64,000 nt of DNA from IMG/VR virus record IMGVR_UViG_3300029590_000324; one strand, given 5' to 3'. The position numbers were made by a program, and so were the translations under genes. The stretch's first letter is position 1, and each line of letters starts with the position of its first letter. Below the pieces are notes generated by a model. The model ran no database searches. It saw only the letters and a list, made by a program, of their open reading frames with translations, and was not told the origin of the DNA. Shown here piece after piece: positions 1 to 49,058 of this stretch. Source of the stretch: a virus. Taxonomy: Duplodnaviria > Heunggongvirae > Uroviricota > Caudoviricetes.

Positions 1-3000
1 TTCTCCGCCGGTTGCCTCGGTTATAGGAACGATACCCTTTTTGCGAGCCCTTTGCTGCCTCATGTAGTCTGCGAAAGAGCCGGTAAATGTTCCGCTTTCA
101 AGCGCCTTTTGATAGTCAGACTTATGCTTATCATGTTCAGCCTTTGTGGTTGCATTGACTTTGTGACCCAGACCCTCAACAGGCTCGCCGTTGATCGTGA
201 CAAGCTTCTTTGTAATCTTACCCGTCTTGGGGTCGGCAACGAGGTTATATCCTCCGACAGTATTGCCCTTAGCTTTATTGTCGTCGCTCTTACTATCGGC
301 ATTTTGCTTTTCGGCATTGTCGTTAGACTTTTTCATCTCTTCCGTGAGAGCTTCGGTAGCTTGGGTGTTCGTTTTTATTGCCTCGCCATCATAAGCCGCA
401 CCTTGGAGCTGGTTGATGTCATAGCCCTGCAATAAGAGCTGAGTAAGTATCTCCGCACCCTTTTTGTAGAGTTCAGCGCTGTCCTCGTGAGCCTTCTGAG
501 CAGCAGCGTCCGCTTCGTCAACGGTTGTATAGTCGCCGCCCATGAAGATATCCATATTCTCAAGCTTGATACCCTTAGCCAACTGGCTTATGAGATAATT
601 ATACAGGTCGTCCTCATAGGTTTCGCTGTTAAGATCAACTACGGATTTTCCGTCGGGCTTAAAGGGAGATACATTAAACGCTCCATCGGGGTGCTGGTCA
701 GCCTTTTGCCAGAGGCTTTCGGAAATAGCCCAGATGTCCTCGCTTATTATTTTGCCTTGCTTTTCTTGACTGACAAGATATTGCTCGAACAAGTCAGCGA
801 GATCGCTGTATGTCAATGTCGAGCCGTAAATAGTACCGTAATTACCCTCGGTATCATGTACAACCGATGTCCTGTGGTTAATATCTACATTGCCCTCGTG
901 TCCCTTTTCGCCATAGTTGGAAGGAACCTTTTGAAGCTCTGCATAGAACGCATTCCACTCAGCAATGAGTTTTGTCACCTCGTCACTTTGAGGCGCAGCG
1001 GCATTGCTCGATTTAGTGGTCTCTGCAGCTGTAGAATTACTGCTGTTCAGGTCAAGCCCAATGTTCTTGGCAGCCTCTTCCGTAGTACGGTTGTTCTCTT
1101 CCGCCAATTCATCGACCATTCTTTGAGCATCGGAAGTGGTAAGCGTGTCGTCGGGAACATCTACGCCGGCAGCGGAAGCCTGAGATTGACTGAAAGACAT
1201 CTTCTTGTTCAAAGCTTCGAGCGCTGTTGTACCATCGGCGCTGGACAAAAGCTGGGCTATAAAGTCAGGATCAAGATTGTATTGCTGTGCTAAGAGCGCC
1301 GTCAGAACCCTTGTCAGATTGTTGATAGGCGTCTCGATTTGCTTGATTTGTTTTTCACGTTCCTCGATCTCGGTCTGGATAGACTCGTCACGGGCTTCTT
1401 TTTCTTTTTCAAGGGCGTCGATCTGCTTTTCAATAGCATCTGTTACGGAGTCCTGCTTTGCGTCCTCGTATTCCTTTTTAGCCTGTTCATACTCTTCACT
1501 GTCTGCCTGAGCTTCCCAGCCGTGATTGGTCAGTACGATATACTTTTTAACACTTGCTTTTTGCATCGCAAGATACTTGTCTTGTATGTCGTTTGCCTTT
1601 TCACGTTCTTTGTTCTGCTCTTCGAGCTTCTCTTTTTCCTTGTTCAGAGCCTTGATGCGCTTGTCCATCATCTTGTCGTATTCGTCTTGGACATCGTTCA
1701 ATGCGTCGATCTCGTCCTGATAAGGCTGGGTCTGCAACTCGGACATTGCGTCTAAGCCGTCTATCTGTTTCTGAATTTCACTCTTGTAGGCTTCAAGGAT
1801 GTCTTTTTGTGTCTGCAAATCTTCCTTTGCAAATTCTTTCTTGTCCTTGTAATACTTTTCCCAGAGCTTAGTGTATTCGTCAATATAGTCGTCAGATGAG
1901 ATAAGTCCGGCTTCAAGCTGATTGTCGAGCTGCTCTTTTTCGTACTCAAATGCCGATGTTACGTAACTCTTCTGTTGTTCAAGAGCATCTTGAAGTGCGC
2001 CGGTCAACTGTTTAGAATTGCCAAGCAGGGCTTCCGAGAGATAGGGAGCCATAGCTGCTAAATCAGTAGCATCCCATGTGCCTGTTTCTATGCCCTTTTG
2101 AATTGATTGAGCAACTGCATTGGGAAGTTCTTGACCTTCAAATACTTCTTTGATATCATCAATGATGCTTGGATCGATTATTTTACCAAAATCAATAGAG
2201 CTTTGAATTCTGGAAGTAATGTCACTGAATGCGTCTCCTGCGAGCTTTTCAATTTCACGAAGATTAGCTTCATACTGTTTCTTACCATCTTCTGTATTGC
2301 CAATCTTTGTACCCGGAGCGTAATACTGTTCATTGAGAGCAGCAAATTGCTTTTGATATTCAAGGGCACTTATCTGCAGGTCTTCACGAGCATTGTCAAT
2401 GATAAGTTTTGCGTCATCAAAGTTTTCCTGAAGCCGAGTGAGCTTAGCATTATATATTTCCTCTTCGCCACTGTCGATCAGATCTTGAGCTTCTGAATCA
2501 TTAGATGCTGCTGTATTCTTTAAAGTGGTGACAGCCGCTGCAAAACCTTGGTCATATGTTTCTTGGTTTATTTCACCCGTAGCTAATTGATGTTTGAGAT
2601 CCTTTACCGTCTTATTGAACTTATTAACAGCATCAGAAGATTTGAACGATTCAATAATGGATTTTAAAATCTCATCTAAGAACGTCAATTCTTCTTTACT
2701 ATCTTCTATAGCATCTCCTGTGGCATTTATTCCATTTTCAAATTTGCCCATTCGCATAGCGGCTTCTTCAAGTTGTTTTGTTGTATATTTTCCACTCGCT
2801 TGCATATCAGAAAGAATCTGAGCAGAGTTTTTTCCTTCACTATTTGCTCCGCCAAGCTTTTCTTTAAGGGCTTTAAGTTTTGTCTCGAATACTTCTTGAG
2901 CAGATGAAAGCTTATCAGTAGTGTTTTTCAGTGCTTTATACGCATTGTCCAGTCCGCTGGTTTTCTTTATCATTTCAGATAGAGTAGCGTTATCCAGATC

Positions 3001-5661
3001 GTTTAATACTATTTTCCCGTTATTAACACTGAGATACTTCTGCCAATCAGGAACTTGCTGCATAAAATCAAGGGCGGTAGTTAGATCAAGTTCGTTATAT
3101 GCAGCCATTTGATTACGCATTTCAAGTATTTTACTTGTTATAGTCTCAAATTTATTTGCCGCACTATCAAGTATAGACACCCAGTTCTGAGTAGAGTTTT
3201 CCAGTTGTTCGAGCAAGAATTGGTATTGAGCTGTTTCGGCATTTATATCTTTGATTTTATTTTTTCTGTCGTCAATCTTAGCGTTGATTTGCTCATTCTG
3301 TTCGATGATCTTTTCATATTTATCAATATTCTCGGTAGCTTGTTTTATGCCTACTTCATCGTTTAAAGAAGTGTATTTACTAAGTTTGCTTTCCCAGAAT
3401 GTCAACATTTTCTCGGGATCATCAGTTGTATATAAATTATTTTGAAGTTCAGCTATTTCTTCTTTGATTTTTGTTTCTTCTTTTTTGTTTGCCTTTATTT
3501 CATCTGAAATATCTTTTCTTTCGGAAGAAACAAACTTTTCTCTTGCCTCAGCCATTTTATCATATGCTATAACATATCCATTGGCTGTTTTTTCAACTGA
3601 ACTTAAAAGATCAGGAGAAAGTGAGAGTATTTCATTTATTTCGCTGTTATCCATCGTTTCGCCGGTCATCATTTTTGACATAGCTGTATCGAATTTATCA
3701 ACTTTGTCTCTTGTAGTATCCATTTGCTCTACAAGTACAGAGAACGATTTGGTTACAGCGTCAGTGTCGCTGGCTGTTGTAGATTCAATAATACCGAGAT
3801 CTGCAAATGCCGAAATGATACCATCTATCGTAGTACCGTATGTCTCTTGTGCGACAGCTAAAAAGTCAGTAAGACCATTTTCAGCATTGTTTAGGTAAGC
3901 TTTTGCTTCTACGTCTGTCTTACCATTAAATGCTTCAGATATAGTTCCCCACTTTCCGTTATTGCTAATGCCGGCAGTAATCGCATCCCGAAGTTTTCGT
4001 TCAGATATATCTTGGTCAAATGCGCTAAACATCTCGTTGAAATAATCGGCAACATTCTGATGATTTGCAGCTTCTTCGATGTCTAAAATTCCATCTTTTA
4101 ATTTACTTAAGCTTTCAATTTCCTTATTTATTTCATCAGTATCACCGGAGACAACAGCTTCATTGTAATCATCGATGGCTTGCTGAATTTTGAGATAATA
4201 ATTGTAGGCATCATCATTTGCGATAATTCGCTCTTTTGCACTACTCTCATAAACTTCTTTGCTTGATTTATAATCTTCGGATTCTGCTAAACCTCGTCTG
4301 CGTTCTGAAAGTTTATTTCTCCACTTGGCAGCTTCTTTATCATTGGCCTCGAAGTTATCGTTGATGTATTGAATCAATGAATCATAAATTTCAATCATTT
4401 CTTCATATGTAACATCATTAAATGTTGTAGTTCGAGTTATTAGATCACGCTGTCCGCCAAGTTTCTCAGCTTCTTGACGTAATTCTTTCTTTACGTCTGA
4501 ATTTGTAGAAAATGCTTCTGTAAAACCTGCAAGAGAAAATTTTGACATTGCACCCTTTGATAGAGGTGCATTCCAGCCGGTTGTATTTGTCTGTGTAAGA
4601 TATTTCTCAGCAGCTTCTTCTCCTGCGTATCCTCCGTTATTTAACATTTCCTGAGCTTTAAGCTTTTGGATTTCTCTAAGCTTAGCAATTTCTTCGTCAC
4701 GCTTACCATTAACAAGATCAATTCCTGCAGCTTCTTCTCCGTAGGTGTCATATAAATCATTCTGAATTTCCAGAAGGTCTTTTTTCTTATCATAAGCTTC
4801 TGAATCGGTTAAAGTCCCAGACTCTATAGCATCTTTGAGTTCTTTTATTTTATCTATGTTGTCATTGATGGAATCATTTTCAGTATTAAAAGCATCAGCA
4901 AGTTCGTTTGCCTTTTTGATTGCGTCTTTCTCAGAGTTTATCCACGCAGCAAGCGCAGAAATTCCCGCCTGAACAATCAAACTGATTCCAAACGATAGAG
5001 CAATATTTGCAGCTGTCATAGCCGCTGCCTCTACTGTTTTGGCGGCAGCGGTAGCACGAGCCTGATGTTCATAGATTTTACCGGACTTGGCACCGAGTGT
5101 TTGTTTTTGCGCAAAATCTGCTATGCCGGTATTTACGGTTCGTATAGAATTATCGAACTCACGATATGCTTTCTGGGCACTCTCAACGGTTTTTTTATTA
5201 TCTTCTACAGCCTTCTTAGCCTGTTCGTAGGCATTGTTATCGAGAGACGGCTTAAACAGCCCCAGATTATTTTCTGATTCTTTCAGAACTGCCTGCGCAT
5301 CGTCTATTTTACCCTTAAGCTCAATATAGCGGTCAAATATCTTTTGAATATTGGTATTGTTCTGAGCATAATCAATATAGGTAGAGCCAATATATTTTTG
5401 ATATCCTTCTTCGGAAACTGCCTTGTTGCCGGCAACGCATGTTGCAAGGTAAGCGTTTACGGAATCAGTTGCTTCGTTTGTGCCTTCTGCAATGCTTTTC
5501 CAATATTTATATGAGTCAGAAGAAAAGTCTTTAATTTTCTCCTTAGCTTTGTCAAGTTTAGTTTTGATCTCTTTTTCATCAAGAATAATATCAAATATAT
5601 TATCTTTATTTTTCCATCGTTCTTTTAATTGCTTAATAACCGAAGCAGGTTGGAATATATT
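1..5661 (-). CDS. Tape measure protein, exon 2 (1887 codons, open to window edge)
   Basis: The frame starting at 5661 reads NIFQPASVIKQLKERW...AAMTAANIALSFGISLIVQAGISALAAW...YDTYGEEAAGIDLVNGK... I translated several parts by hand and found no stop. The ORF track lists no terminated ORF in this frame, consistent with it running off position 1. Coiled-coil, Ala/Lys/Glu-rich, like a TMP. Confidence 0.9.
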
Positions 5662-5712
5662 CAATCTGTTATCATAGTAAAATAATTGTGAGAAATTATT
5701 TTACTTAAAGTG

Positions 5713-5741
5713 TTGACAAAAAGCCTCTTCAGTGTTATGAT
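5713..5741 (+). promoter_or_regulatory. SigA-type promoter for the antisense cargo operon inside the intron
   Basis: TTGACA (5713-5718), 17-bp spacer, TG-n-TATGAT (5733-5741); GGGAGGGG RBS before ATG 5762. Confidence 0.8.
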
Positions 5742-5761
5742 TTATAATGGGAGGGGATAAT

Positions 5762-6214
5762 ATGGAAATATTTAAAGCAGAATATCAAATATGCCCAAGG
5801 TGTTTAAAGTATCATTCTTTAGGTGCTTATAAAAGATGTATTTATTGTCGTTATGAACATTTGATCACTTATACATTTGAAGCACCTCGTAATGATAGCT
5901 GGTCGAGCAAAGAAGATGCAGACGGTCATGCTAATTCCGATGCTCTCTACGGAAACCCTGAGTTCTCCGAAAAGCTCTACAAGCGCCGTCTGAGAGACGA
6001 ACACGCTATCGAAATGCGCCACTTAGAATTACAGCGCAGTCAGATTGCCGAGCAGAAAAAGGGCACGTCTGTTCCCAAATGCCCTACCTGTGGAAGTACG
6101 AATGTAGAAAAAATATCCACAGCTCAAAAAGCTATTGGTTTTGCTTTGGTTGGATTGTTTAGTAGTAACTTGGGTAAGACTATGCACTGTAAGGATTGCG
6201 GATATAAGTGGTAG
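5762..6214 (+). CDS. Zinc-ribbon protein with a short hydrophobic segment (intron cargo)
   Basis: CxxC pairs (CPRC, CIYC, CPTC, CKDC); C-terminal PKCPTCGSTNVEKIS...IGFALVGLFSS...CKDCGYKW; good RBS. Confidence 0.75.
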   Translation: MEIFKAEYQICPRCLKYHSLGAYKRCIYCRYEHLITYTFEAPRNDSWSSKEDADGHANSDALYGNPEFSEKLYKRRLRDEHAIEMRHLELQRSQIAEQKKGTSVPKCPTCGSTNVEKISTAQKAIGFALVGLFSSNLGKTMHCKDCGYKW

Positions 6215-6239
6215 TGATTCGGAAAAGGAGAGAACCGTT

Positions 6240-8045
6240 ATGAATTCAAGTAATGATTTCAAATTTAATTCATTAAATATTACTCCTATTCCTATATCTG
6301 ATTTTATTTTATTACCAATGAACATATTTATCACAGATGAAGAAGGAAATCGTGTTAAAAAAGTAACCTCTATTTATGAAGCAAAATTCAAACGTTTGGG
6401 ATATTTTGAAGATTTAAACGCTTATGAAATTATAAAACAAATTAAAAATTTTTTTAAAGCTCCTTCAAAAGAACTATTTAAACAGATATGTACTTTTTTA
6501 TGCGTAAAGGAAACGAATGTGCTATATGAAAATATTGTGCAGATCTATGAGCATATTCACGCATTTAGATCGACTGATGAAAATCGGAAAAACATTATGT
6601 TTGTCAATAGTTTCCTTAAAGAAATGACAGCTTCTTACGTCAACGATCAAGAGTGTATGTTCGCACAATCTAATGAAACAGATGAAATATTTCCAGAAAT
6701 TCCTATATTTCTAAATGAAAATAAGTGGGATCTGCATATTGCACCAATATACAACAACGGTATTATTCTTTTTTACACTATGTATAAATGTTCTAAATGC
6801 GAAAAAGAAAATTTTAATTTTATCTCAGTCAAATATACCTTTGTGCCTGATTTCGTTGCGATTATAAACGAACTTAAAAAAACATCTTGCGATTGTAAAA
6901 CACATTTTTCACTTAATGGAATTCGTGGAATTAGTTATCATTTTTTCCCTGATAAAACATTGCGATATAATTTTCGACACAATGTAGACGATTCAAATCG
7001 AATCACCTTTAAATATAAAGGACGAACAGCTCGTATTTTTAGTTCAAAATCTCAAAATGATTTATTAAGCGCAAAGATTTGTCTTAACGCTAACTTAAAA
7101 ATAAAAAATACCTTGCCTGAATGGATAGATAATTTTCATAAAATTAAAGCAGATTCTAACAAGTTAGAAATAACAACACAGAAAGTTTCCAAGGACTCAG
7201 AGCCTATAGAATCTACCCCAGAGATTGATGTTAAACTCGGAGATGTATTCTATTCAAAAAATAAATCCATCTGTAATCATCATTTCTATAGGGTAATAAG
7301 TGTTGAATCATACGAAGTAGATATACAATGCACAGAATGCGAACAGAAAAGGCATATTTTCAAATCAACATTGATAGAAAATTACAAGTTTGCCTATCAC
7401 AGCGATTTTATTGATTCAACAAAATCTTCTCAGAAAAAGATCGAATCTTCGCCAAGTCTATCAATGCAAAAAAAGAAGATATCCGTTGTTGATGTAATTG
7501 TGTTAAGCACTTCGAAAAAATGCTCAGAATTTAATCACACGATTGTTGATTACATTGGAATATTACCCGTGTATCACAACGATCAATGCAAGAATCTTGA
7601 AATTAATATTGGCTATTGTAAGCAGTGTAATAAATATATTATGCTTACATCCGATTATATCAAAATTAACGGGTCTCCAATTTGTGAAGTCAGGGACCAA
7701 ATCACTGGTAAAATATATAATAAAGGTTATAATATATACGACTCTAATTCCACCGAATCAGTACTTCATTCATATGGATATAATGTACGAGCTGGGAATG
7801 GACTTTCATCGATAGATCGTAGAAATATTCTACTTAACATACTTAAAAATGGTGTGTGTTCTAAGAGTGAAATTATTTCCCATTTAGATTATTGCATCAA
7901 TATGGCTTCCGGAAAGAGTAATATGAGCGTTGCCATTCATAAATGGAAATCGGATTTGCAATTTATTCGTGAATACAAGATCAATGCCGAAAAAGTAGCC
8001 ATTGGATCCATTACCCTGAAATATAATAAAATCAAACACCGCTGA
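6240..8045 (+). CDS. ~600-aa Cys-rich hypothetical protein (intron cargo)
   Basis: AAGGAG RBS before ATG 6240; several CxxC motifs; AT-rich. I see no LAGLIDADG, GIY-YIG, HNH or EDxHD motif. Confidence 0.75.
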   Translation: MNSSNDFKFNSLNITPIPISDFILLPMNIFITDEEGNRVKKVTSIYEAKFKRLGYFEDLNAYEIIKQIKNFFKAPSKELFKQICTFLCVKETNVLYENIVQIYEHIHAFRSTDENRKNIMFVNSFLKEMTASYVNDQECMFAQSNETDEIFPEIPIFLNENKWDLHIAPIYNNGIILFYTMYKCSKCEKENFNFISVKYTFVPDFVAIINELKKTSCDCKTHFSLNGIRGISYHFFPDKTLRYNFRHNVDDSNRITFKYKGRTARIFSSKSQNDLLSAKICLNANLKIKNTLPEWIDNFHKIKADSNKLEITTQKVSKDSEPIESTPEIDVKLGDVFYSKNKSICNHHFYRVISVESYEVDIQCTECEQKRHIFKSTLIENYKFAYHSDFIDSTKSSQKKIESSPSLSMQKKKISVVDVIVLSTSKKCSEFNHTIVDYIGILPVYHNDQCKNLEINIGYCKQCNKYIMLTSDYIKINGSPICEVRDQITGKIYNKGYNIYDSNSTESVLHSYGYNVRAGNGLSSIDRRNILLNILKNGVCSKSEIISHLDYCINMASGKSNMSVAIHKWKSDLQFIREYKINAEKVAIGSITLKYNKIKHR

Positions 8046-8058
8046 AACTTATAGATGT

Positions 8059-8259
8059 TTAAATGTTGTCCCAATCTATTTTGTTGGCAGATAGAATAAC
8101 ATTGTTCTTACATTGTTTATCTTTTACCATACCACGCACAACATCTATAATTGTTTCGGCTTCACCGTAGGTTATATTATTGTCGTGAAATAAATTTATT
8201 ATATCCATAGGCATATCAAGGATTTGCCTGTTATGAAGAAGAAATTATTCTGTAATCAT
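8059..8259 (-). pseudogene. Small cargo gene with premature TAA at codon 5
   Basis: RBS AGGTGGTG, then MITE*FLLHNRQILDMPMDIINLFHDNNITYGEAETIIDVVRGMVK...DWDNI*. Confidence 0.5.
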
Positions 8260-8263
8260 TTTA

Positions 8264-8470
8264 TCACCACCTTAAATACAGAAAAAGGAAGATAATTTTT
8301 AAAAGGATAAATCCAATAATAAATGAAGTAATAGCAATTATTAAAATCTCTCGTAGATTGATTTCCTTTTTTTCAAATTCCACAATCTTTATTGGATCTG
8401 GAGTTGGTGGAGATATGGCTGTAATATAATTACTGTTTTCTTTCGTCAATACGACTCTTTTTTTACTCAT
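8264..8470 (-). CDS. Small single-TM membrane protein (intron cargo)
   Basis: 68 aa with C-terminal hydrophobic helix ILIIAITSFIIGFILLKIIFLFLYL; AAGGA RBS. Confidence 0.6.
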   Translation of the reverse strand: MSKKRVVLTKENSNYITAISPPTPDPIKIVEFEKKEINLREILIIAITSFIIGFILLKIIFLFLYLRW

Positions 8471-8556
8471 TGATTAATTCCTTTCTTTTATTAATATTAT
8501 AAAATGATATAACACATATCAAATAATATGATGATTGTAAATATCAATGGTAAAGA

Positions 8557-8838
8557 TTACTCTTCTTGCACCATTGAAAAATTCTCATTTTCAATATCCC
8601 ACGAATATTCTACACCGAAGTTAAAGGGATGTGGGTAAATTATTGTACTTCCACCATTCTTAACTATTTCATTTAACTTTTCTTTATCCCAATCAAGATA
8701 AAAGCGTTTCACGTTTTCCAAATGTTTACCATTGACAGTAATGGAAAATGGTGTCTCATAATTTGTAATATCAGGGTTGGTTTCAATGATAATCTTTAAT
8801 GGTTTCTCGTTAATAACCATATTATCTTTTTCAATCAT
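8557..8838 (-). CDS. Hypothetical protein (intron cargo)
   Basis: 93-aa ORF with GAAAGGA RBS, downstream of a candidate promoter at 8900-8872. Confidence 0.65.
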   Translation of the reverse strand: MIEKDNMVINEKPLKIIIETNPDITNYETPFSITVNGKHLENVKRFYLDWDKEKLNEIVKNGGSTIIYPHPFNFGVEYSWDIENENFSMVQEE

Positions 8839-8871
8839 ATTATATTTTCCTTTCTTGGAGTGATTTCTACG

Positions 8872-8907
8872 AAATTAACATATTTAAGGTAAAATGTCAA
8901 GACATTT
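8872..8907 (-). promoter_or_regulatory. Candidate SigA promoter for the sense cargo genes, -35 inside a palindrome
   Basis: Minus strand TTGACA (8900-8895), 17 bp, TG-n-TAATTT; the -35 lies within AAATGTC-nn-GACATTT (8892-8907). Confidence 0.5.
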
Positions 8908-9306
8908 CTCTATCTTTTACGTTGATAGATAACGTTGATAACTCCATACTACTTCTGAAAGTGTCTTTACACTTGAGCATGGACGTTCTTGCGAACGAGA
9001 TTGGACTGTCTCTCAGACAAGTATCCAACGAACAGATTACTTGCCAACCGACTTACAGTCTCTGAACCGACCGCAGAAGGTCTCACCCTTCAATTTTTAT
9101 CCTTATGGACTTAGCGGTTTGGCTGCTGATTTCACATTATTAACCCCGTTAGCTTTTGGCATAGGGGAGCCGTTCTGTTTTTTCTGAGTTTCCTCACCAT
9201 GACGAATGCCTTTTCAAGCTGCGCTTTGGTAGAACGGCGTTAGTGATTTCCAGCAATTTTCCGGTTTGTGCATTTGCTCAGTTACCTGAACAAAGGGCAT
9301 ATTAAT

Positions 9307-12300
9307 ACCTAAAATGCCATCAGCCTTTTGGCCCTTATTCTTTATTGAAAGTCCGGCACTGATAGCTGTAATTATAGTGGGAAGAGCTTTGATCTCATCG
9401 AAATATTCCGCCCAGCTGCTATCTGGAGCAATTTTTTCGAATATCTGACTAAATGACAGAAGTGAATCGGTAGCTCTTACGATTGCGTCTCCCGTGGAGA
9501 CAAAGAATTTTATAAGACCAGAATCAATGACATCGTTGCTTAATTTCTGGTATGATGCTTTGAGTTGTGCTATGCGACCCTCAATAGAATCTACATATGT
9601 TGCGTTTTCATCTAATGCGGATCCTGCTGAATTTAAAGAATCTACCAGAGCTGAAGACGCAGTAGTCCAGTTATTCAGCAAAGCTGAAACCTGATTTGCT
9701 CTTGTCTTGCCTGCGATAGTTTCAAGTAAACTTGCACGGTTAATATCACTCATATCAGCCCACTTATCGGCTATTTCACCCATAATTTGATATGTTGATT
9801 TAAACGTGTCTTCATCAAGCATGATATCTACACCAGCAAGTCCTTTGATTTTTTCTCGCAATTTAGAAACAGAATTACACATTCCGTCAGTATCTTCGCC
9901 TGCTGCCTCAAGAGATGAAGATGCTCCACGAAGCCTCATTGACAAAGTTTTCAAGGCATTGCCCGCACTTGCACTGTCCTGTGTAATTTCTGTTATGGCT
10001 GTAATCATCGCTGCTGATTCTTCCATTGTATTGTTTGCCGTTGCTAATGCCGATGCTGATTCTCTTAAGCCCTGTCCTACATCCGCAGAAGCAAGAGCAT
10101 ATTTGTTACCTAAAGTATTAAATGTATCAACGATCTTAATACTATCCTCAGCGGTAATATTGAATGCTTTCATTGATGATACTATGTCATCTGTTGCGGT
10201 ATTGATATCCAAATCTCCTACATTTGAATACATTAAAGCATTGTTAGCCAACTCAGAAGCTTCTTTGAGGTTGTAGCCCAAACGGCTAAAATCAGTAGTT
10301 GCATCAATTACCTGCTGCATAGTTGATCCAAGATCACGAGCTTGATTAGCCGCAGAAGTCATAAATTTTTGATATGTAGATTCAGTCTCTTCACTTACAC
10401 GTTTAAGATTCGTCATCCCGGTATCGAGTTCTTTGACCACAGAAACCATCTGTTTAAGATAATTTAATGCTTGATACGTAGCTCCACCGATCATTGCTTT
10501 AAGCCCAATCTTTGAAGCGATAAAGCTAAGTTCGTCGCCTAAAGATCTTCCAGTCAAGCCCTTGCTCATAACAACAGATTTCAGAGAATTAAATCTCGCA
10601 GTAAGTTCATTCAATGATTTTGCTGATCTATCAGCATTTTGAACCGATATCATTAATTTATTAAACTCGGCAGAAAGACCACCGTCTTGATTGATCCTAC
10701 TGTTTTTGTCTATAAAATCCTGAATTTTAAAGATTAAATCATCAAATTTAGAGCTGAGTTTCTCTGCGGAACCAGCGATATTATCCATACCTTTGAAATC
10801 AGAAGCTTTTTTCTTGAGATTATCTACTTCTTCAGAAATTAATGTTACCTTACCAAGAAATTCGTTGATTTCCTTATTAGAGCCGGTTGTCAGATCCTTT
10901 TGTTCATTTTTTAATTTCTCAATTTGGGCAATTAAATCTGTTATCTTATTATAATATTCATCACCTTGACCGCCACGATTAACTGTGTTTTTCTTGGCGG
11001 CTTCAAGTGTATTTAAAAGCTTATCCAGATTATTGACAGATTTATTGATATTGGTAAACCTATCGGTAGTTTCATTCAAAGCCTTCATTGCATTGATGAT
11101 TTCTTGAATATTTTCGATATTATAATTCGATGAACCACTGTTAATATTCTGAATTTTCTTATCAAGTGCTTCTTTCAGACTGTTATAAGCTACGAGCTGG
11201 TCTCCACTAAAGGTGTCATTAAACTTATTCTTTATTTTGTCTAAGTCCTTGCTCATCTTAGAGGCAAAGTCTGTGTTTGACATTGTAGCCGAATAAGTTT
11301 CTGCTGTGTTATTGCTTAACTTGAGAACGTCCTGTATTTTTTTCTCAAGAGTATTCCAACTATCAATAATAGCTTTATTTTGATTTAACCATTCTCCCAA
11401 AACATTTGCATCATCAAAATTTTCTAATGGATTTATTTCGCCCAATGTGTTAACTGTATTTTGAAGTTCTGATGAGAGATCTCTGGAAATATTGGAAAGT
11501 GCCCCGGAAACATTCTCTTTCATCTTAGATGCAGCATTATAAGCGTCCTCAATGCTCTTTTGAACCTTGTCATATTCATTTAGCTGAGATTTAGACGGCT
11601 TAGGAACTTGCGGTTCTTCTTGTCTTTGAGCTTCTCTTACTGCTCTTTGAGCAGCCTTTTCACGAGCATTGGTGATGGCGGCCTCAACATCAGCCTGAAG
11701 TTGTTTTGTATCTAAGCTTAATCCAACGTTTTTCATTGCTTCGCCAAGATCAGTTTTCAATCCATTCTTGGCTTCTTTAGTTAGTTTAAATGATTGGATT
11801 TTAACATTTTTAATGCCCTGACCAAATGCTTTTGGATCGACTTTTAAATGCTGTATGTTCAGAGTTTCCTTAATATTGTTATTGGTTATTTCAATAGGAA
11901 CCTTTTTCAACTCGTCGGCGATTTGTTTTTTTAGTCCTTCAACATTAGGCGTGAAAGAAATTGGAATAGGATTATTTTCTCCGAGTGCAGCAACAATTTG
12001 CTCACGAATAGAGGCAACCTGATTTTCATTCAGAACATTATAACTTTCTGTCAAGGTGCCGTTAGTTGTGTCTTCAGAAGGTTTATTTTCAACGGGAGTA
12101 TTGCCAATACTGATTTTAAATGGCTTTTCAACTTTTGCCTTTAGATCATCAACAGCATTACTGATTGAAGTTACAGATTCAACCTCAGACGCCGACGCCA
12201 CAGTCATCTCTTCAGCTTCGGCTTTGATTGATTCGGTCTTTTCATTGATGTGTTGAGTTAAATTTGTTACAGCCTTATCAATTTCATCAAAGTTTTGAGC

Positions 12301-15300
12301 CTCTGAAGCTAAGATATTAGATGACGGAGATCCAACTTCTGATTGATTGTTATTGGCCGCTTGCCTCTCTAAAGCTTTACGTTTCTGCTCTTCTCTGGAT
12401 TTTTCAGCAACTGATATATTTTCAGGGACAGGTGCCTCTTTTGGCTCAACTGCATTGGATGCCTCTTTTTCAGCTTCGGCTCTTTTACGAGCTGCTTCAG
12501 CTATAGCATCCTGCTCTTGCTTCTGCTTCTTCAAAGATTCTGAGTATTTTGCTTGGATATTAAATATATCTTCTTCATAATTTTTATATTTAGAAATCTC
12601 ATTCAAATCTAAAGAAGCATCCTTTATCTTCCCACGAACAGCTTCTCCACGGTTTGCAAAATCAGATGAATAAAAGTCTTGACCTTTAAATGTATCATAC
12701 TTTTCCATAATAGCATCAACACTATTAGACATCGACTTTAAGTTTTGCTTTAAAACATTGAATTGCTTTCCAGACGTTACTTTCTGCGAAATCATTCTCT
12801 GGAATTTCTGATTATATTCATCAATTACAGCCTCATATTTCTTTGCATCTTCCTTGGCCTGCGCCATTTGATTTTTCTTTTCAGTATTCGTGCCGATTCC
12901 AGACTGCAATTTATTCATCAATGCGTCAAGTTTTGTGCTATCCTGAATTGATATGTCTCCATTTTTACTCTTTAAAACAAGAGCAGAAAGTTCGTTAGCT
13001 TTACCCTCGTAGTTTTCTACAGTAGCAATAATATCCTTGACACAAGACTGCATATCTTGCAGCCTTTTTATTCTTGCATCGAAATCGGTTTTATCTATTT
13101 TTTGAGATGTAAGCTCATTAAAAGCTTGTACTGCTTCAGATAATTTTTTATATGCTTCAGTTTCCTTATAGAGTTCTTGAGTGTTGGCAGTTGATTTCTG
13201 TGGATCATCATCAGCAATATCGTTTTGAGGCTTGTTGTTTCCGACCTTTAAGTCTTTAAGTGATCCTGCCAAATTAAACTTTTTATTTGACATCTTCCCT
13301 TTATATGAGTTCTTTTCAAATTCAGCAATTTTTTTATCTATCTTTGCATCAAATTGATTTTCAAGTTGCTTAAACTGTTCGGCCAATTCCTCTGCAGTGG
13401 TGCCAAGATTTTTCAGACTGCCATCTTCATTGAAGTTCCCTGACATTTTTTCAATTTGTCCGCTAAGTCTTTTTAACCCACTCATACCTTCGGGGATATC
13501 TTTCAAAATTTCCTCTGCCTTATTCATTCTTTCCTGAAGTGCTTTAACGGCTTCTCCAAGTTCCTTAATAGTTTCAGGGCTGCCAGCCTTAACAACTTGT
13601 TCTCCTTCGCCTACTTGTACAGAAGTAGCTTTAAGTTGTTCAAGCTCGTCTTTGGCACTCTGTGCCTCTGCTTTTACTTTTTCAAGAGCAGAGGTAAGAT
13701 TATCATAATCTTCTTGATTTATCACAAAACCATCAGAACCAACTATTGAATCAAACTCTAATTTATCATTTAAGTCACTTATTTTTTGATTGAGTTCATC
13801 AATCTTCTGCTTGGCAGATTCAAGAGCCTGTTCAGTAGTTAGAAGTTTATTTTTGATATCATCAGGCTGATCAGCAGTTGTGCGATACTCTTTTATTTTG
13901 GCGGTCAATTCCGTAATCTGCTGCTTATACTTTTCAACTTCGGCGGTAATATCGGCATAATTTTTCTTAAGTTTTTCAGCTTCTTCAGATGATAGCATTT
14001 CATCACTATTTGGAGTGTCACCGGCACCACTTGTCAAACTATCGTTGCCGCCAGTTAAAGCTCCTGAAATAGAACCAATACCTGATGTGTCAACCCCCAT
14101 CTTTTTCAACCCAGTAATAATAATTTCTCTTTGTTCATTCAGCTTATTGATATCTTTCGTATTAAATATTGCTTCAACGAATCCCGGAGCTAAAGAATTA
14201 TAGCTATTTATTTTTGCTATCAGCATATCGATGTCAGACAAGCGTTCCTTTAAAGTTGAAATTTTATTTTCAGCTTTAGCGCTACTATCAATAATTGCCT
14301 GCATATTTACTTCGTTTAACGTATCAATGTCATATGATAATGCTTGTGCATGCGCCGCATATTCTTCGCTATAATCATCAGTCTTACTCGGTTCGTTCAT
14401 ATCTCTTGAAAGAGATAGAGTATCTTTAACAGTTTTCAGATACTTTTTATACATCTCCATATCGTCAATTTTCCCGACCTTTGAAGATTCTTCACCCAAA
14501 CTTTTTAACGCTGTTCGGAGAGCTTCTATTTGCGCAACGGTATCATATATTTCGTTTTCATCTGTGTTATGATTAAAATTATTATAAAGGTCGATTAACT
14601 CTTTAAGTTCATCTTTTAACTTCTGCGTTTCATTTGTTATTTCAGAAATATTTGAACCACTGGTCATAGCCTTAATGTCAGAGTCGGTATAACTCTTACC
14701 AAAAGTGTTTGCATCAGTATTGTTGTTTAAGAAACTTATGAATTCTTTAGTTATTTGTTCTTTCATATCCTTAACATAAGCAACGTCCTTTGCTTTTTGC
14801 TGCAAAATCGCTTTAACATCAATATTGTTAGCATTAAGCTGCTCAGAGATCTTTTTATTATTCAGCAACTGTTCGATTTCTTTAGGGAAACGGCCATTAA
14901 GAGCGATTGTGTCGCTTCCATTTTTTGCCGCAGAAAATGCTTTCGTTTTAAAGTATTTGTTTATATATGCTTCAAGCTTATCTTGTGAAAAATTCTTAGC
15001 AAGCTGTTTCATGTCGTATTCCAGTTGATCCTGTAAATTCTTTTTCTGCTCCGCAAAGAATTTATCACCCAGCTGAGTTTTCAAAATTTTGCTCAAAGAA
15101 TCATTAGCAGACTTATCAATTTCCTTAGCGAATTTATCTATTGACTTGTCGATACCTTTTATATCAAATAATTCCTTACCATCGAATTTAATAGACTTTA
15201 GCTCGATTTGATCTATCTCTGCGCCGGTCTCTTTAATTTTTTGGTTTAGCGCAGTTATATCTTCAATAACATATTTTAAACCTGCCATAGCAAAAACCTG

Positions 15301-15510
15301 TTTGGTTTTGCTTTCTGCTTTTTCAACAAGTTGAATTAAATCATTATATCTTTGTTGAGCAAGTTTTGCATCATTAGCCAACTGCTCTCCTATTTTAAGA
15401 TTATCATTCTTTTGACTTATTTTCTCAAGAGTCCTTTCAAGAGATTCTAATCCATCTTCGGCACTCTTAGAATTTATGCCGACATCTAACATAAGCATAT
15501 TTCCTGCCAT
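9307..15510 (-). CDS. Tape measure protein, exon 1 (2068 codons)
   Basis: Long coiled-coil ORF. The TMP core is near its C-terminus (ELDTGMTNLKRVS...GNALKTLSMRLRG...IAGKTRANQVSALLNNW). The track ORF runs 30 codons into the intron. Confidence 0.92.
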
Positions 15511-32562: not shown

Positions 32563-32637
32563 TGGGGATGCGATCGGGATTCGAACCCGAGCCGACGCCG
32601 TGAAAGGGCACCATCTTAACCACTTGACCATCGCACC
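32563..32637 (-). tRNA. tRNA-Glu (UUC), 75 nt, CCA encoded
   Basis: GGTGCGA..GTC-AAGTGGTTAA-GAT..GTGCC-CTTTCAC-GGCGT..TCGGG-TTCGAAT-CCCGA-TCGCATC-C-CCA. Confidence 0.93.
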
Positions 32638-44019: not shown

Positions 44020-44799
44020 TTACATTTTCACGATCCTATACAGATTATCGTCAAGATATCTTCTCAGTAGTGTATCTTCATCGAAACCTGTTCCGTGGTA
44101 GAATTCCTCGGCAATGCCTCCGCCGATCGCACATAGTGTATCGGTATCGCAAGGCAGTGACAGAACATTTCTGATGAAATTCTCATAACTCTCGCTTTCG
44201 AGAAAGCATCGGATTGCTACCGGCACACTGCCCTGACAAGTCACATCCCATTCGTATATGTTCCTGTAGTTATTAAGACTCAAATCTACCCCGTATTTGT
44301 ATATGTAAGATGGATAATGCTTAAGTGTATAATCGTATATTGCCGATTTAGATGCTCCGCTTTTTGCCATATTGACACACATAGCCGTTACGATCGCACC
44401 CTTTATGCCCTCTGGATGATTATGTGTGCAGACTGCTGAGAGCCTTGCAAATTCTTTTATATCGTTTTCGTTTTTATAATGTTCCCCAATGTAAGAGCAT
44501 CTCATTGCTGAACCATTTCCGAAGCTACCGTATGGACCCCCGTCATCGTGTCTTAGCCATCTGCCAAACATACCACCATATCCGGCGTAAGGGTATCTTT
44601 TACCCAATTCTCTGTAGCATTTTGCAAATGACTCTTCGTTAAGCACTGCCTTTTTTGCTGCCAGTGTCATAACGGTATCATCTGTGAAATAACATCTGTT
44701 TGTAAAAAGCTCACAATGCTCCCAGTCAAGATCTTGGGGTCTGTCGAACTCGTACTGAGAACCTGCAATATCTCCTAAAATTGCTCCGATTATAGCCAT
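44020..44799 (-). CDS. ADP-ribosylglycohydrolase (DraG/ARH family)
   Basis: GAILGDIAG, FTDDT, SFGNGSAMR, THNHP, DTDT. Confidence 0.92.
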   Translation of the reverse strand: MAIIGAILGDIAGSQYEFDRPQDLDWEHCELFTNRCYFTDDTVMTLAAKKAVLNEESFAKCYRELGKRYPYAGYGGMFGRWLRHDDGGPYGSFGNGSAMRCSYIGEHYKNENDIKEFARLSAVCTHNHPEGIKGAIVTAMCVNMAKSGASKSAIYDYTLKHYPSYIYKYGVDLSLNNYRNIYEWDVTCQGSVPVAIRCFLESESYENFIRNVLSLPCDTDTLCAIGGGIAEEFYHGTGFDEDTLLRRYLDDNLYRIVKM

Positions 44800-44841
44800 A
44801 AAATCATTCCTTTCTTATTACTGTAGTGTTGCTATGGGACT

Positions 44842-45132
44842 TTACAATTCTGCCTGAAGCTTCTCGATAATTTTGTCTATCTCATCGTCAAGTCTCCATC
44901 TGAAATGACACCAACCATTGCTGCCATTGTCTGAATACATAGGGCATTTGCCGTCTCCGCCATCTGGGAAATGAGCACAATAGTAACAGTCGAGGTCATG
45001 CTCATTGAGATCAGCCGCCATATGATTTATAGTGGCCTGTGCTCGCTGCAAAAGGCTTATGAGATTGTCGATCTCATTATTTGTCATACAGCCACTCCTT
45101 TCCGTTAATAACTCTTGTATTTTCGTGCGCAT
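44842..45132 (-). CDS. Small Cys-rich hypothetical protein
   Basis: CYYC..CP..WC; start uncertain (45132 or 45087). Confidence 0.5.
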   Translation of the reverse strand: MRTKIQELLTERSGCMTNNEIDNLISLLQRAQATINHMAADLNEHDLDCYYCAHFPDGGDGKCPMYSDNGSNGWCHFRWRLDDEIDKIIEKLQAEL

Positions 45133-45142
45133 AAATCTTACC

Positions 45143-45877
45143 TCATTCATCCGCCGGTTCATACGGAAACTTTTCAATATCGCCGTAAAGCATTGAATAT
45201 TTTCCATTATCCCAGTCGTCGTGATAATGTCCAAAATACCAGTGCTTGAAGTCAAGCCTGTCGGCAATCTTCTGAAACCAGACTTCCATAGAGCTGTCCA
45301 CGAGGGACTGGTCGATACCTCTCAGGAAAAGGTGTGTGGGTCTCGTATTATAAGGACAGGTATGAGACAGCACGTAGTCAACGCTCCATCCGGCTTTGTC
45401 AAGTATTTGCTCTATCTCAGTCTTACGCTTATCTGTGATCTGCTCTGACTCGAACCAGTTCCAGCCTTTCATCAGCCTGTAATACTTGTCCACCGAATAT
45501 GCACCGCCGAGAATCAGCGTCTTAGTGCCGTTAAGCTTGTAAATACTGCCATCCTTGGCAAAGATCAGATTTGGGTATTCGGGTTCGTAGTAAGCCGTAT
45601 CCTCACAAAACTCCGTCTCGGTATATGTAGAGATGTTCTCGGGTCTCTCCTCGTGGTTGCCATGAACGCATAGCAGTGTGATAGGGGACTGGGCGAGCAT
45701 TTCTTTTAGCCTCTGATCACGTCCATTTCGGTAATAGTTAACGCCCGCATCTCCAAGAACTATCATCAGGTCGTTACGGGTGGTGCCTTGCTGGTCACAG
45801 AATCGCATAAGCCCCGAGAAATCCCCGTGCTTATCACCCGTGATATAAATGTTGTCAAATGTGGTTACTTGAGCCAT
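45143..45877 (-). CDS. Calcineurin-like metallophosphoesterase
   Basis: GDKHG, LGDAG, HGNHE, GGAYSVD, LSHT, FGHYH. Confidence 0.9.
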   Translation of the reverse strand: MAQVTTFDNIYITGDKHGDFSGLMRFCDQQGTTRNDLMIVLGDAGVNYYRNGRDQRLKEMLAQSPITLLCVHGNHEERPENISTYTETEFCEDTAYYEPEYPNLIFAKDGSIYKLNGTKTLILGGAYSVDKYYRLMKGWNWFESEQITDKRKTEIEQILDKAGWSVDYVLSHTCPYNTRPTHLFLRGIDQSLVDSSMEVWFQKIADRLDFKHWYFGHYHDDWDNGKYSMLYGDIEKFPYEPADE

Positions 45878-47205
45878 TTCTGAGCCTCCTTTAAAAGCGT
45901 TTCCCTATCGTTTGGAAGAGCGTCATCTGTTACGGAGTTTAACAACCCTGTGAGCACTTCTCCTAATTCCTTGCCCGGGACAAAACCCAAGGCAATAAGA
46001 TCATCTCCGTTGATTGAAAGGTCTTTCATAGAAAAGCATTGCTGTTCTTCAAGGACTTGATTTAAAACATCTGCAAGATCATCAATTTTCCTCATTTTCT
46101 CCCTATCATAAGGAATTTTCTGCCCCCTAATATCAGCCCTGCGAAGATCGATGAGACGCTTTAATTGAATTTCTCCCACTTTGTTTAGCCAACGCTTAAC
46201 AGCTGATGGCTTTGCTATAAACGAAGAATCGTGATATAAAATCAACTGAACAACAGCATTTCGGGTGTTGCTGTCATATTTCAAGCGCCTCATGATTTTA
46301 TCTGTCATATCCGCCCCGACAATATTGTGTCCCACAAAATGTCTGATACCGTCAGGTTCGTCTTGGTATGAATGAGGTTTCCCGATATCGTGGAATAATG
46401 CCGCCAATCGAAGGATAAGATCGTTCTGACAGGATACTGCTGTATAAAGTGTGTGAATAAGTACATCGTACATATGATGAGGATTATTCTGAGGAAACTT
46501 AAGCATATCCTTAAGCTCTGGAATAAATTGTGTGAATACGTGAAAATATAGGACTAACATTGTGACAAATCGATTGGATATAACGATTTTATTGAATTCG
46601 CTGGTAATTCTTTCAGTGGATATATTTGCTAAAGAATCCCTCTGTCTGTTTAGTTCAGAAGACGTGTTGTCTTCAATAACAAAACGCAGCTGTGCGGCAA
46701 ATCGAATGGCTCTAAGTATTCTGAGAGCATCTTCGTTAAACCTATCTGCCGCATTCCCAACGCATCTGATTATGCCACGCTTTATATCACCCATTCCATC
46801 AAACGGATCGATAAGACCTTCTTCGTCATTATATGCCATTGCATTGATTGTAAAATCCCGACGTCTTAGGTCTTCAGTAAGGTCGTCAATAAACGTCACG
46901 CTGTCAGGTCTGCGATTGTCAGAATACACCCCGTCGATACGAAACGAAGTGCATTCATACTGCTCGCCATCAATAACTACTGTTACCGTGCCATGCTGCA
47001 ACCCCGTCTCGATAACACGGTAATCTTTAAACACTTCAAGCGTTTGCTCCGGTCTCGCAGAAGTGCATATATCCCAGTCGTGAGGAACTCTGTTCATTAG
47101 ACTATCTCTGACGCAGCCACCAACGATATATGCCTTGTAACCTGCATCTTGAAGTGCATGAATGATTACATTTGCATTGGGTGGCATATCAATTTTATAC
47201 TTCAT
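45865..47205 (-). CDS. tRNA nucleotidyltransferase (CCA-adding/poly(A) polymerase class II) with HD domain
   Basis: VGGCVRD, DWDI, DLRRRDFTINAMA, EDALRILRAIRF, FHDIGK. Confidence 0.93.
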   Translation of the reverse strand: MKYKIDMPPNANVIIHALQDAGYKAYIVGGCVRDSLMNRVPHDWDICTSARPEQTLEVFKDYRVIETGLQHGTVTVVIDGEQYECTSFRIDGVYSDNRRPDSVTFIDDLTEDLRRRDFTINAMAYNDEEGLIDPFDGMGDIKRGIIRCVGNAADRFNEDALRILRAIRFAAQLRFVIEDNTSSELNRQRDSLANISTERITSEFNKIVISNRFVTMLVLYFHVFTQFIPELKDMLKFPQNNPHHMYDVLIHTLYTAVSCQNDLILRLAALFHDIGKPHSYQDEPDGIRHFVGHNIVGADMTDKIMRRLKYDSNTRNAVVQLILYHDSSFIAKPSAVKRWLNKVGEIQLKRLIDLRRADIRGQKIPYDREKMRKIDDLADVLNQVLEEQQCFSMKDLSINGDDLIALGFVPGKELGEVLTGLLNSVTDDALPNDRETLLKEAQKWLK

Positions 47206-48220
47206 TTTTTATCACTCTTTCATTGATGCTCTGAACGAAATCATTTATTGCCTTGTAGTTTGGCTTAGGTGGGAGTTCGGTGTGCTCTTTCGCATACTGA
47301 TATTTCTTTTCATATTCGTCTATCATCTCATAGAACTCGGGAGTGGGCTGCTGATTTTCATCAAGGTACTTGCCGTTGCGGATGTCTATCAGCAGGTCAT
47401 GATCTTTTTCACGGTATGTTATTACGCCTCGTCCCTCAAGAATGTCAATACACATGAGATACAGACGAATCAAGTGCATCATATGCTTGCCAAGCCTTCC
47501 GTTTTCGATAGCCTTGTTGTTGCGGTATCCGATGTTATTGTAAGACTTAATAATGCTCTTCATTTCATCCCACATTCCGGCGTAGTCTCTGATAGGGTAG
47601 TGGGTCAGGTTAGTATCCATGAAAATTTCGGTTTCCATATCGGGACTTACAGCCTTGTCAATATATAGCCGAAGCTGACCAGCAGGAATACCATATTTTT
47701 CTTCAAAGTTTTCGGCAACGTGAGACAGTGTGTTATAGATATACTGTTCCAGCTGTTCCTGACCAACAAGGCGGTTGGCTTTATTTTCAAGGCGGCGAAG
47801 CTGAGCGGTTGCATACCCACCGAAGCTGTATGCAGCCTTCTGGGAAAGAAACAGATTAACGTTGTCAAGAAGCTCCTTCCCGATAGGGGAGACATAGAAA
47901 TAATGTTCTGGCTTGTTTCCCAGCATCTCGATGGTGTTGGGGTTACAATTAGCGAGCAGTGAGACCAACTTGTTGAACGAATATATCGTGGTGTCGGTCT
48001 CTTCATTTACAAACTGCTCGAAGTTTTCGCTGGTAAGCAGCTCTCTTGGAGTATTCAGGGCACAGCCACGAATATCCAAGTCACTGGTGGGAGTATCCGT
48101 TCCGTAAGCGTGGGAACCGCCGACTGTCAACAAGATGACATTAGAGCCAAGATGTGGATTATCCGACAGGAAGCTGTATTCAGAGCTGCGGAGCGCAGAC
48201 TTGATTTCATTTATTGTCAT
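47195..48220 (-). CDS. Pol-beta superfamily nucleotidyltransferase (RlaP/YcgL-like)
   Basis: GGSHAYGTDTPTSDLDIRG, CNPNTIEML, SFGGYA, KHMMHLIRL. Confidence 0.85.
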   Translation of the reverse strand: MTINEIKSALRSSEYSFLSDNPHLGSNVILLTVGGSHAYGTDTPTSDLDIRGCALNTPRELLTSENFEQFVNEETDTTIYSFNKLVSLLANCNPNTIEMLGNKPEHYFYVSPIGKELLDNVNLFLSQKAAYSFGGYATAQLRRLENKANRLVGQEQLEQYIYNTLSHVAENFEEKYGIPAGQLRLYIDKAVSPDMETEIFMDTNLTHYPIRDYAGMWDEMKSIIKSYNNIGYRNNKAIENGRLGKHMMHLIRLYLMCIDILEGRGVITYREKDHDLLIDIRNGKYLDENQQPTPEFYEMIDEYEKKYQYAKEHTELPPKPNYKAINDFVQSINERVIKNEV

Positions 48221-48489
48221 AGTATCATTCCTCCATATAAATTTCTCGGTTGAGAATTCTGCAAAGCTTCTTTTGCTTTATCTTCGGTAAAATAAGTAAG
48301 AATATGTTCAAAGCAATACCAACGAGTCCAGTTAAAACATTTATAATCATTGTCATAATAGACAAACCATTCGTCTTTATCCTCATCTTCAAGCCACACC
48401 AGTTCGTGAAGATACATTAGCTTATTCTGAATACGCAGAAACCTATGGTTATCGCTTAACCATTTTATTACATCTATTTTATTTATCAT
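48217..48489 (-). CDS. Partial paralog of 48555-49058
   Basis: LRIQNKLMYLHEL / YYDNDYKCF match LRVQNKLMQLHEL / YYDNTYKCF. Confidence 0.6.
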   Translation of the reverse strand: MINKIDVIKWLSDNHRFLRIQNKLMYLHELVWLEDEDKDEWFVYYDNDYKCFNWTRWYCFEHILTYFTEDKAKEALQNSQPRNLYGGMIL

Positions 48490-48554
48490 TGTTTACTGCC
48501 CCATTTCAATTGTTGCCTTTTATTGCGACCACCTTTTCCAATTCGCCCATGTCA

Positions 48555-49058
48555 TTATCCTTTCATCATAAGTATTTCTTTGTTGAGAATTTCACAAGCC
48601 TTTTCTGCTGCTTCTCTGGTAAAACAAACGGCAAACCAATTACAAGAACACTGAAGAGTATAACTAAAACACTTATATGTATTATCATAATATATAGCCC
48701 ATGTTGTTTTACCTGTATCCCAATCAGGAAAACAATCGGGACACAACAACTCGTGAAGCTGCATCAGCTTATTCTGAACACGGAGAATATTGTCTCGATA
48801 CCATTCAAGATGTTTATCTGTATCTTTCATTACTCTAAATACACTATTCATATTAAGTATACCAGTATCGTAAGCCGTTTCGTCATTTGTTTCTGTAGAA
48901 ACACTGCCATCAGTAGCGAGATATAGATATTCTTCGCCTATTTTTGGTGTCCATATTGTCTCTTGCGTTTCAGCAAGTTCAGCCTTGAGCTTTTCAAGCT
49001 CTGCCGACATTGCCTTGTAATTGGTTTCAAGTTCTGCAATTTTTTCTTCTGTCGTCAT
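48555..49058 (-). CDS. Hypothetical phage protein (family shared with 58606-59103)
   Basis: N-terminal coiled coil, YLYLATDG, FTREAAEKA. Confidence 0.7.
   Translation of the reverse strand: MTTEEKIAELETNYKAMSAELEKLKAELAETQETIWTPKIGEEYLYLATDGSVSTETNDETAYDTGILNMNSVFRVMKDTDKHLEWYRDNILRVQNKLMQLHELLCPDCFPDWDTGKTTWAIYYDNTYKCFSYTLQCSCNWFAVCFTREAAEKACEILNKEILMMKG

Follow-up and report, generated by a model that had tools for sequence, protein, structure and literature searches.

In the 64,000-nucleotide (nt) stretch of DNA analysed here (the window), which comes from a tailed phage of the Caudoviricetes (IMG/VR record IMGVR_UViG_3300029590_000324), the tape measure protein (TMP) gene is split in frame by a 3,645-nt group I intron. 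The intron probably splices itself out and rejoins the two exons, and the loop closed by its P9.2 helix holds passenger genes that vary among phages. To judge by its sequence, it is likely to represent a slot for accessory genes inside an essential gene, and some of the cargo in relatives is likely to act in phage defence. An earlier sequence-only reading of the same DNA had proposed a splice-out harbour for moron-type accessory genes, an idea supported by the variable cargo found at the same site in relatives. The gene and its intron are arranged as follows:

9307..15510, minus strand: TMP exon 1, 2068 codons, with a PhageMin_Tail domain (PF10145, E 7e-24) and a match to the tape measure family phrog_4211 (E 1e-83)
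1..5661, minus strand: TMP exon 2, at least 1887 codons, open at the window end; its first residues are NIFQ
5662..9306, minus strand: the whole group I intron, 3645 nt, with the same ends in six relatives

The C-terminal residues encoded by exon 1 are ...ADGILG, and the frame resumes at position 5661 after the 3645-nt break, the exons being in the same frame; the joined product is predicted to comprise at least 3955 amino acids (aa). The exons of 2068 and at least 1887 codons described by the sequence-only reading, 3645 nt apart, are borne out by the coordinates (15510-9307 and 5661-1), as is its in-frame GILG-NIFQ join, since both splice sites and the frame hold in the window sequence. In the unbroken TMPs L073 and L003 (L-numbers are labels of fetched relative loci), the C-terminal part is homologous to exon 2 and immediately continues the exon-1 part. 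An exon-2 profile matches L073 at 756-896 (E 4e-16), just beyond the exon-1 match at 558-740, and gives no match on a reversed control. As to translation of exon 2 from its own start, which had been set against splicing, no ribosome-binding site is found near the exon-2 start: a start led by a Shine-Dalgarno sequence (SD) is missing from -30 to +100 codons in 30 of the 32 junction types, and the remaining two have an SD-led TTG 65 codons into exon 2.

The catalytic part of the intron adjoins exon 1 and includes the following elements:

9296..9309, minus strand: P1 helix, with a U9307.G wobble at the 5' splice site; U.G in all seven alleles compared
8936..9306, minus strand: ribozyme core with P9 and P9.1, running from P2 to P9.1, with a long P5 extension and no P7.1
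9003..9062, minus strand: P7, the 3' strand of P3, and P8; P7 is formed by 9062-9056 with 9008-9003 and is invariant in the seven alleles

All the group I elements are in order within the first 370 nt of the gap (fold z -4.5), and the complete core announced from the sequence (P1, P2, P/Q/R/S, P7, P8 and a GCAA-capped P9) was located in full, followed by P9.1 downstream. P7 contains G9062, the bulged A9061 and the guanosine-binding pair G9060-C9004, assigned by position. A covariance-model check of 8936-9306 had been proposed, and the full RF00028 model (1-253) matches 9322-8982 when a 431-nt stretch is searched alone, with 44.7 bits and an E-value of 2.6e-10, below the curated cut-off; the core is missed at gathering level and in an E-value scan of a 4-kb stretch. 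The core aligns to the P/Q/R/S elements of RF00028, and its P3-P7 pseudoknot and P4-P6 domain are paired in all seven alleles of the close relatives, named lineage A below. Across these alleles 98.4% of 688 cells are paired and 19 of 99 pairs have changed on both sides, a level of covariation reached by none of 500 shuffles, and slid controls pair at 36-46%. An insert of P7.1/P7.2 between P7 and P3 is a feature of subgroup IA. This insert is missing here, the 3' strand of P3 starting within 4 nt of P7, which places the intron outside the IA type of typical phage introns, IStrons and the TMP introns of Bacillus cereus.

The 3' splice site lies beyond the cargo and is defined by elements from both ends of the intron:

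8998..9002, minus strand: P9.0 5' strand, AAUCU (GAUCU in L029, giving a G.U pair)
8936..8942, minus strand: P9.2 5' strand, GUUAUCA, where identity with relatives stops
5662..5674, minus strand: 3' end, composed of the P9.2 3' strand (5674-5668, UGAUAAC), the P9.0 3' strand (5667-5663, AGAUU) and the terminal G5662
9081..9086, minus strand: P6b loop, GUGAGA, predicted to form a kissing contact with the loop of the 3' hairpin, with compensatory changes over seven alleles
5676..5705, minus strand: 12-bp hairpin whose loop UCUCAC (5693-5688) is complementary to the P6b loop

Both pairings suggested earlier, AAUCU with AGAUU and GUUAUCA with UGAUAAC, proved complementary at 9002-8998/5667-5663 and 8942-8936/5674-5668, respectively; the kissing-partner hairpin at 5705-5676 had been missed. 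The two strands of the 64-kb window contain a single copy of the 12-nt terminal motif, and the terminal G and P9.0 are kept in the seven lineage-A alleles, with one G.U variant. Every one of these alleles has, 12-45 nt upstream of the terminal G, a hairpin whose loop is complementary to its P6b loop: GUGAGA/UCUCAC in three alleles, GAUGAGA/UCUCAUC in one and AUGAGGA/UCCUCAU in three. These compensatory changes span 2-5 kb and amount to three loop types, with at most two independent changes. The stems of the 3' hairpins differ wholesale in sequence between alleles with pairing maintained, and the 3' piece folds by itself into a compact module. The P6b kissing loop, together with P9.2 and P9.0, is predicted to dock the distant splice site, and the 6-nt kissing loop between P6b and the hairpin before the 3' splice site would be a new feature. 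Some -10-like hexamers before the 3' end were considered as promoters and dropped, because they form the hairpin stems.

Lineage A, obtained by scanning viral and metagenome contigs, consists of the window and six distinct alleles (L025, L027, L028, L029, L033 and L114), duplicate contigs having been dropped. A survey of related TMP loci for the same site with different cargo had been called for, and this is what the six show: the intron lies at the same codon, with the same terminal motif and a long open exon 2, its length ranges from 2102 to 4830 nt, and the cargo differs among all seven alleles, the ribozyme and the 3' end being kept. The 3' end stays in frame although the exon-2 codons differ among the alleles. 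Identity to L002 drops at 8935, right after the P9.2 5' strand (8942-8936), and picks up again at 6212 within the zinc-ribbon gene, a pattern that an exchange of cargo between conserved flanks would produce. All lineage-A copies found lie at the single TMP site, and the window has no second copy between 9400 and 64000. Scanning GTDB genomes with alignment A2 gave 80 pattern matches and zero relatives, and a blastn query of 50,697 annotated phage records with the core gave no match. When L019 is compared with window 11657-1962, both flanks are 96-98% identical, but identity is 70-76% from the end of exon 1 through the intron and over most of exon 2; this block therefore appears to move between phages as a unit. 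In L018 (6049-7150; the same as L033/L116), the PhageMin_Tail region of the TMP gene holds three small introns without open reading frames (ORFs), one of them above the Rfam cut-off (73.9 bits), which with the cargo intron makes four introns in the TMP gene of L018/L033/L116. The small intron at L116:6610-6934 has the P7.1/P7.2 insert.

The cargo of the window intron forms a sense and an antisense unit:

8872..8900, minus strand: promoter-like site of the sense unit, TTGACA at 8900 (perfect -35), 17 nt, TG-n-TAATTT (extended -10, 3/6)
8557..8838, minus strand: ORF of 93 aa with an SD; no family
8264..8470, minus strand: ORF of 68 aa with a C-terminal hydrophobic helix; relatives in L025, L027 and L028
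8059..8259, minus strand: probable pseudogene, with an SD and ATG, a stop at codon 5 and the next 61 codons open
6240..8045, plus strand: ORF of 601 aa, antisense to TMP and Cys/His-rich, with a widespread, unnamed C-terminal domain
5762..6214, plus strand: ORF of 150 aa, antisense to TMP, encoding a zinc-ribbon protein that includes a hydrophobic stretch; the final gene in the loop, and a conserved one
5713..5741, plus strand: sigma-70-type promoter match for the antisense unit, TTGACA-17-TATGAT with TG, 11/12 consensus

The cargo had been described as four ORFs and one pseudogene with their own promoters. The ORFs (93, 68, 601 and 150 aa) and the broken one stand, and so does the plus-strand promoter match (11/12); the minus-strand site was read by eye and is absent from the promoter scanner's list. 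The pseudogene has no homolog among the fetched loci. The GC content of the cargo is 31%, as against 36% and 41% in the exons. The Cys-rich C-terminal domain of the 601-aa protein (7440-8042, plus strand) has 2372 relatives with varied N-termini and a signature of an invariant C, G-Y-x-V, R and W-x-x-D; it is fused once to an Ltp-type repeat (P0013), and two of 50 scanned relatives have a Pfam partner (macro and peptidase S24). The structure model of the full protein is poor (pTM 0.31) and matches none; the model of the C-terminal domain (pLDDT 86) has no Foldseek match at E 0.001, and the domain has no sequence match in the PDB. Proteins of the 601-aa family are present in three of the seven lineage-A introns and in none of the 58 lineage-B introns described below.

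A heuristic gene call on 65 introns of lineages A and B yielded 345 cargo proteins in 47 clusters and 30 architectures. The antisense zinc-ribbon gene is the last gene, adjoining the 3' site, in 64 of these introns, and lineage C has one too. Forty-one cargo representatives were scanned, leaving out clusters 8, 13 and 25-28, which may be false gene calls. Pfam families above cut-off were SocA/Panacea antitoxin (two clusters), ThsB TIR, DUF3800, DUF2513, aspartyl protease and a helicase-associated domain, with one HEPN protein just below cut-off; PADLOC recognised ThsB (E 3e-13) and gave a weak 'HEase' match (E 1.7e-4) to a hydrophobic membrane protein of L025. No transposase or TnpB family was found among the representatives. 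The absence of a nuclease motif noted from the window alone extends to all 345 proteins, none of which contains a GIY-YIG, LAGLIDADG, HNH or EDxHD motif; phmmer with five queries resembling homing endonuclease genes found no match among them either, and a loose PD-(D/E)xK pattern occurs in 10 small cargo proteins, none of them in the window. The cargo at L025:11083-14251 is a candidate defence system that encodes a ThsB-like TIR protein together with a membrane protein of 193 aa and a P-loop GTPase-like protein of 649 aa, and an Rfam 6A RNA motif (53.7 bits) lies within the cargo loop at L114:9290-9341. A lock-and-key model, with the zinc-ribbon allele as superinfection-exclusion factor and the exon-2 allele as its target, was rejected, as the pairing is not one-to-one: one zinc-ribbon cluster occurs with four exon-2 clusters, and three exon-2 clusters occur with two zinc-ribbon clusters each.

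A wider survey of the best 80 of 224 TMP relatives comprised four loci of lineage A and 76 others. Of the latter, 75 are interrupted just after the same hydrophobic segment, roughly where the lineage-A intron lies, by introns of other lineages whose cargo varies, L073 being the sole unbroken one. The interrupted loci represent three further lineages, B (66 loci), C (7) and D (2); TMPs that are more distant (L003-L008, L010 and L073) are unbroken here. RF00028 matches lineage D (L107) with 38 bits and lineage B (L043) with 23.8 bits (E 6e-4), and a model built on lineage A scores 124-130 bits for D, 37 for B and 29-54 (partial) for C. As introns at other sites score as well as B and C on this model, the relationship is one of deep divergence or repeated arrival. 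An in-frame 3' site ending in G is present in 62 of the 62 lineage-B loci with enough flank (57 by pattern, one in a separate 3'-end check and four by eye), four loci being cut by contig ends. In 20 distinct lineage-B junctions exon 2 opens with 11 nt of which 10-11 match the guide, and the bases beyond them vary. The loop of L107 is closed by a 29-bp helix; at guessed, unverified 3' sites of L106, L113 and L038 no long-range duplex was better than controls. L118 was rejected as a relative, being a chance pattern match in a coding region. Seven lineage-B loci (L055, L056, L061, L065, L067, L068 and L075, at about 10830-11200) have some 370 nt extra in the P6 region, a second insertion point, and L009 (10456-12409) and L015 have a TMP intron elsewhere in the gene, with an EDxHD-like ORF of 358-363 aa in the conventional layout.

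The most likely course of events is the following. The late transcript would be made through the loop, likely passing the cargo terminators by antitermination, and the core would then fold. The 3' piece, consisting of the last 45 nt, would dock on the core by three contacts (P9.0, P9.2 and the kissing loop with P6b). With these contacts the terminal G would reach the active site irrespective of loop length, and guanosine-initiated splicing would yield the TMP of at least 3955 aa. The cargo would be transcribed separately from its own promoters, likely in the lysogen. Recombination between two conserved flanks, the ribozyme on one side and the zinc-ribbon gene with the 3' end on the other, would exchange this cargo, with the intron itself fixed and inherited together with the TMP gene.

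Several points weigh against this account, some of which bear on the alternatives discussed below. Self-splicing of the TMP intron is something that we infer. The RF00028 score falls short of the curated gathering cut-off of 50; the covariation set of seven related alleles, with the structure drawn on the window allele, favours the test; and the core helices P3, P4 and P7 never vary and therefore give no covariation. P10 in lineage A comprises 3-6 bp by duplex folding, is variable and has no fixed register. The energy of the kissing duplex is equalled by 0-11 of 149-397 cargo windows and is not distinctive on its own, so the kissing loop is argued from its position and from covariation. The 76 distant loci are highly redundant and mostly of one lineage, and the lineage-B loci, nearly identical in exon 1, are not independent. 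No named family was found among the window's own cargo genes.

The terminators of the cargo belong to the same side of the balance. A strong sense-strand terminator is present in 43 of 51 distinct cargos and in 0 of 51 exon controls, and in L025 and L028 one lies 68 nt after the core; splicing in cis therefore needs antitermination, and no candidate antiterminator was identified. Long loops hamper cis-splicing in IStrons; in one of them, splicing fell as cargo length grew and had almost disappeared at about 1.2 kb (10.1101/2023.11.20.567912). Both observations favour trans-splicing, in which a half with exon 1 and the ribozyme and another with the 3' piece and exon 2 would be separate transcripts meeting via the kissing loop, P9.2 and P9.0. 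The independent folding of the 3' piece fits this arrangement, and trans-spliced group I introns have been reported from mitochondria (PMC2731911, PMC3873408). The best sense-strand promoter before the 3' piece of the window reaches 9/12 at most, the window's own cargo has no strong sense-strand terminator, and terminator-like hairpins also occur elsewhere in the late region (26347), so that read-through may be general; trans-splicing is accordingly rather unlikely. A bolder version, which we regard as unlikely, is that of a domesticated split ribozyme, whose 45-nt docking module would join the TMP mRNA halves even as separate transcripts and would thus tolerate a terminator-bearing defence island of any size. 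If true, this would represent natural group I trans-splicing in a phage.

Splicing in cis is also challenged by signs that the intron may be dead or leaky, with TMP made as two polypeptides, exon 2 using its own start and the loop being an ordinary moron slot. G5662 is the last base of an in-frame TTG, and exon 2 begins with ATG in two lineage-B loci. Six lineage-C loci (L038, L039, L040, L042, L049 and L051, at about 10825-10900) have UAGUGA where P7 needs UAGUCC and so lack the P7 G-C pair, which could reflect a dead ribozyme, a split helix or an alternative register; L113, related to the L038 group, has a normal P7. At lineage-B 3' ends (for example L060:12805-12830), the strand pairing with the post-core GAGGAGA doubles as the SD of the antisense zinc-ribbon gene, and this second role could by itself explain its conservation. 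Against this stand the lack of an SD for exon 2 in 30 of 32 junction types, the invariant catalytic positions and compensatory changes of lineage A, and its kissing-loop covariation, which has no promoter or SD explanation, the antisense gene starting about 100 nt away. Loss of splicing is therefore very improbable. Least credible of all is a mobile intron with the 601-aa protein as an unrecognised homing nuclease and passengers acquired later: its conserved Cys/His clusters without a known fold would allow a new nuclease type, Pfam also leaves the EDxHD-like ORF of this phage's terminase intron unnamed and the 'HEase' match in L025 points the same way, but the protein, for which a homing activity would have counted against the harbour idea, shows no nuclease motif or fold match, its family has the narrow distribution given above, its gene is antisense to TMP, and no intron-less allele was found among close relatives.

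Elsewhere in the window, the large terminase gene contains a group I-like intron of the ordinary sort (30279-29199, minus strand), with an ORF of 257 aa (30183-29410) that has the EDxHD-like motif. Joining the terminase exons restores an ILDEFR Walker B stretch, and Rfam at E 0.1 did not match this intron. A cluster at 44020-52738 (minus strand) resembles RNA repair systems and contains a CCA-adding/poly(A) polymerase-HD protein, an RlaP nucleotidyltransferase, Thg1, two metallophosphoesterases and an ADP-ribosylglycohydrolase. A tRNA with a UUC anticodon lies at 32566-32637.

If the proposed role of the cargo-bearing intron is true, a selfish ribozyme has been turned into genome infrastructure, a slot for fast-changing genes in an essential coding sequence that has been kept across several intron lineages of a large phage family. 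It would explain 'split' tape measure genes in annotations, offer a new location in which to look for defence and counter-defence genes and, via a 6-bp kissing loop, represent a natural answer to the measured loss of splicing as loops grow longer. RNA engineering could also make use of a group I scaffold that tolerates such length.

Precedents exist in TMP introns, in IStrons and in a coral intron that bears genes. A literature search, which covered few subscription papers, found no phage intron described as a variable gene slot, and the accessible parts of two papers describe ordinary phage introns only (PMC7886860, PMC11318856). TMP-IVS1, IVS2 and IVS3a/b of Bacillus cereus-group prophages are in-frame group I introns in the tape measure gene, of types IA1/IA2; as here, some have no complete endonuclease gene and different introns can share one site, and no multi-gene cargo is described in the available part of the paper (Tourasse and Kolsto 2008, PMC2504315). 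The window intron differs from them in its lack of P7.1, its long P5 extension and its 2-6 kb of variable genes. IStrons (CdISt1, CboIStron) share the upstream ribozyme, the genes in a 3' loop, the distant 3' splice site and the silent insertion, and the same paper mentions related introns with uncharacterised accessory factors (10.1101/2023.11.20.567912). Unlike them, the window intron has no transposase, TnpB or transposon ends, occupies one fixed host site and carries cargo on both strands with its own promoters. The hexacoral mitochondrial intron ND5-717 is likewise a group I intron with ordinary, independently needed genes in a peripheral loop, although its cargo consists of fixed core genes in P8 and its giant form is removed by back-splicing (PMC6545197). 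The phage intron, in contrast, has its loop after P9.1 and fast-turning accessory genes. Phage group I introns with a homing endonuclease are typified by T4 td, and the terminase intron of this phage is an example. They share the ribozyme class and splice-site logic of the window intron and differ in having one sense-strand nuclease ORF, of about 0.8-1.1 kb, instead of several non-nuclease genes on both strands. Finally, phage morons and defence hotspots are AT-rich genes with their own promoter and terminator in the late operon, exchanged between conserved flanks and in some cases defence-like. The cargo resembles them in its variable genes, promoter match and terminators between conserved flanks (30 architectures in 65 introns); morons, however, sit between genes, whereas this slot lies within a coding sequence, hidden by predicted RNA splicing.

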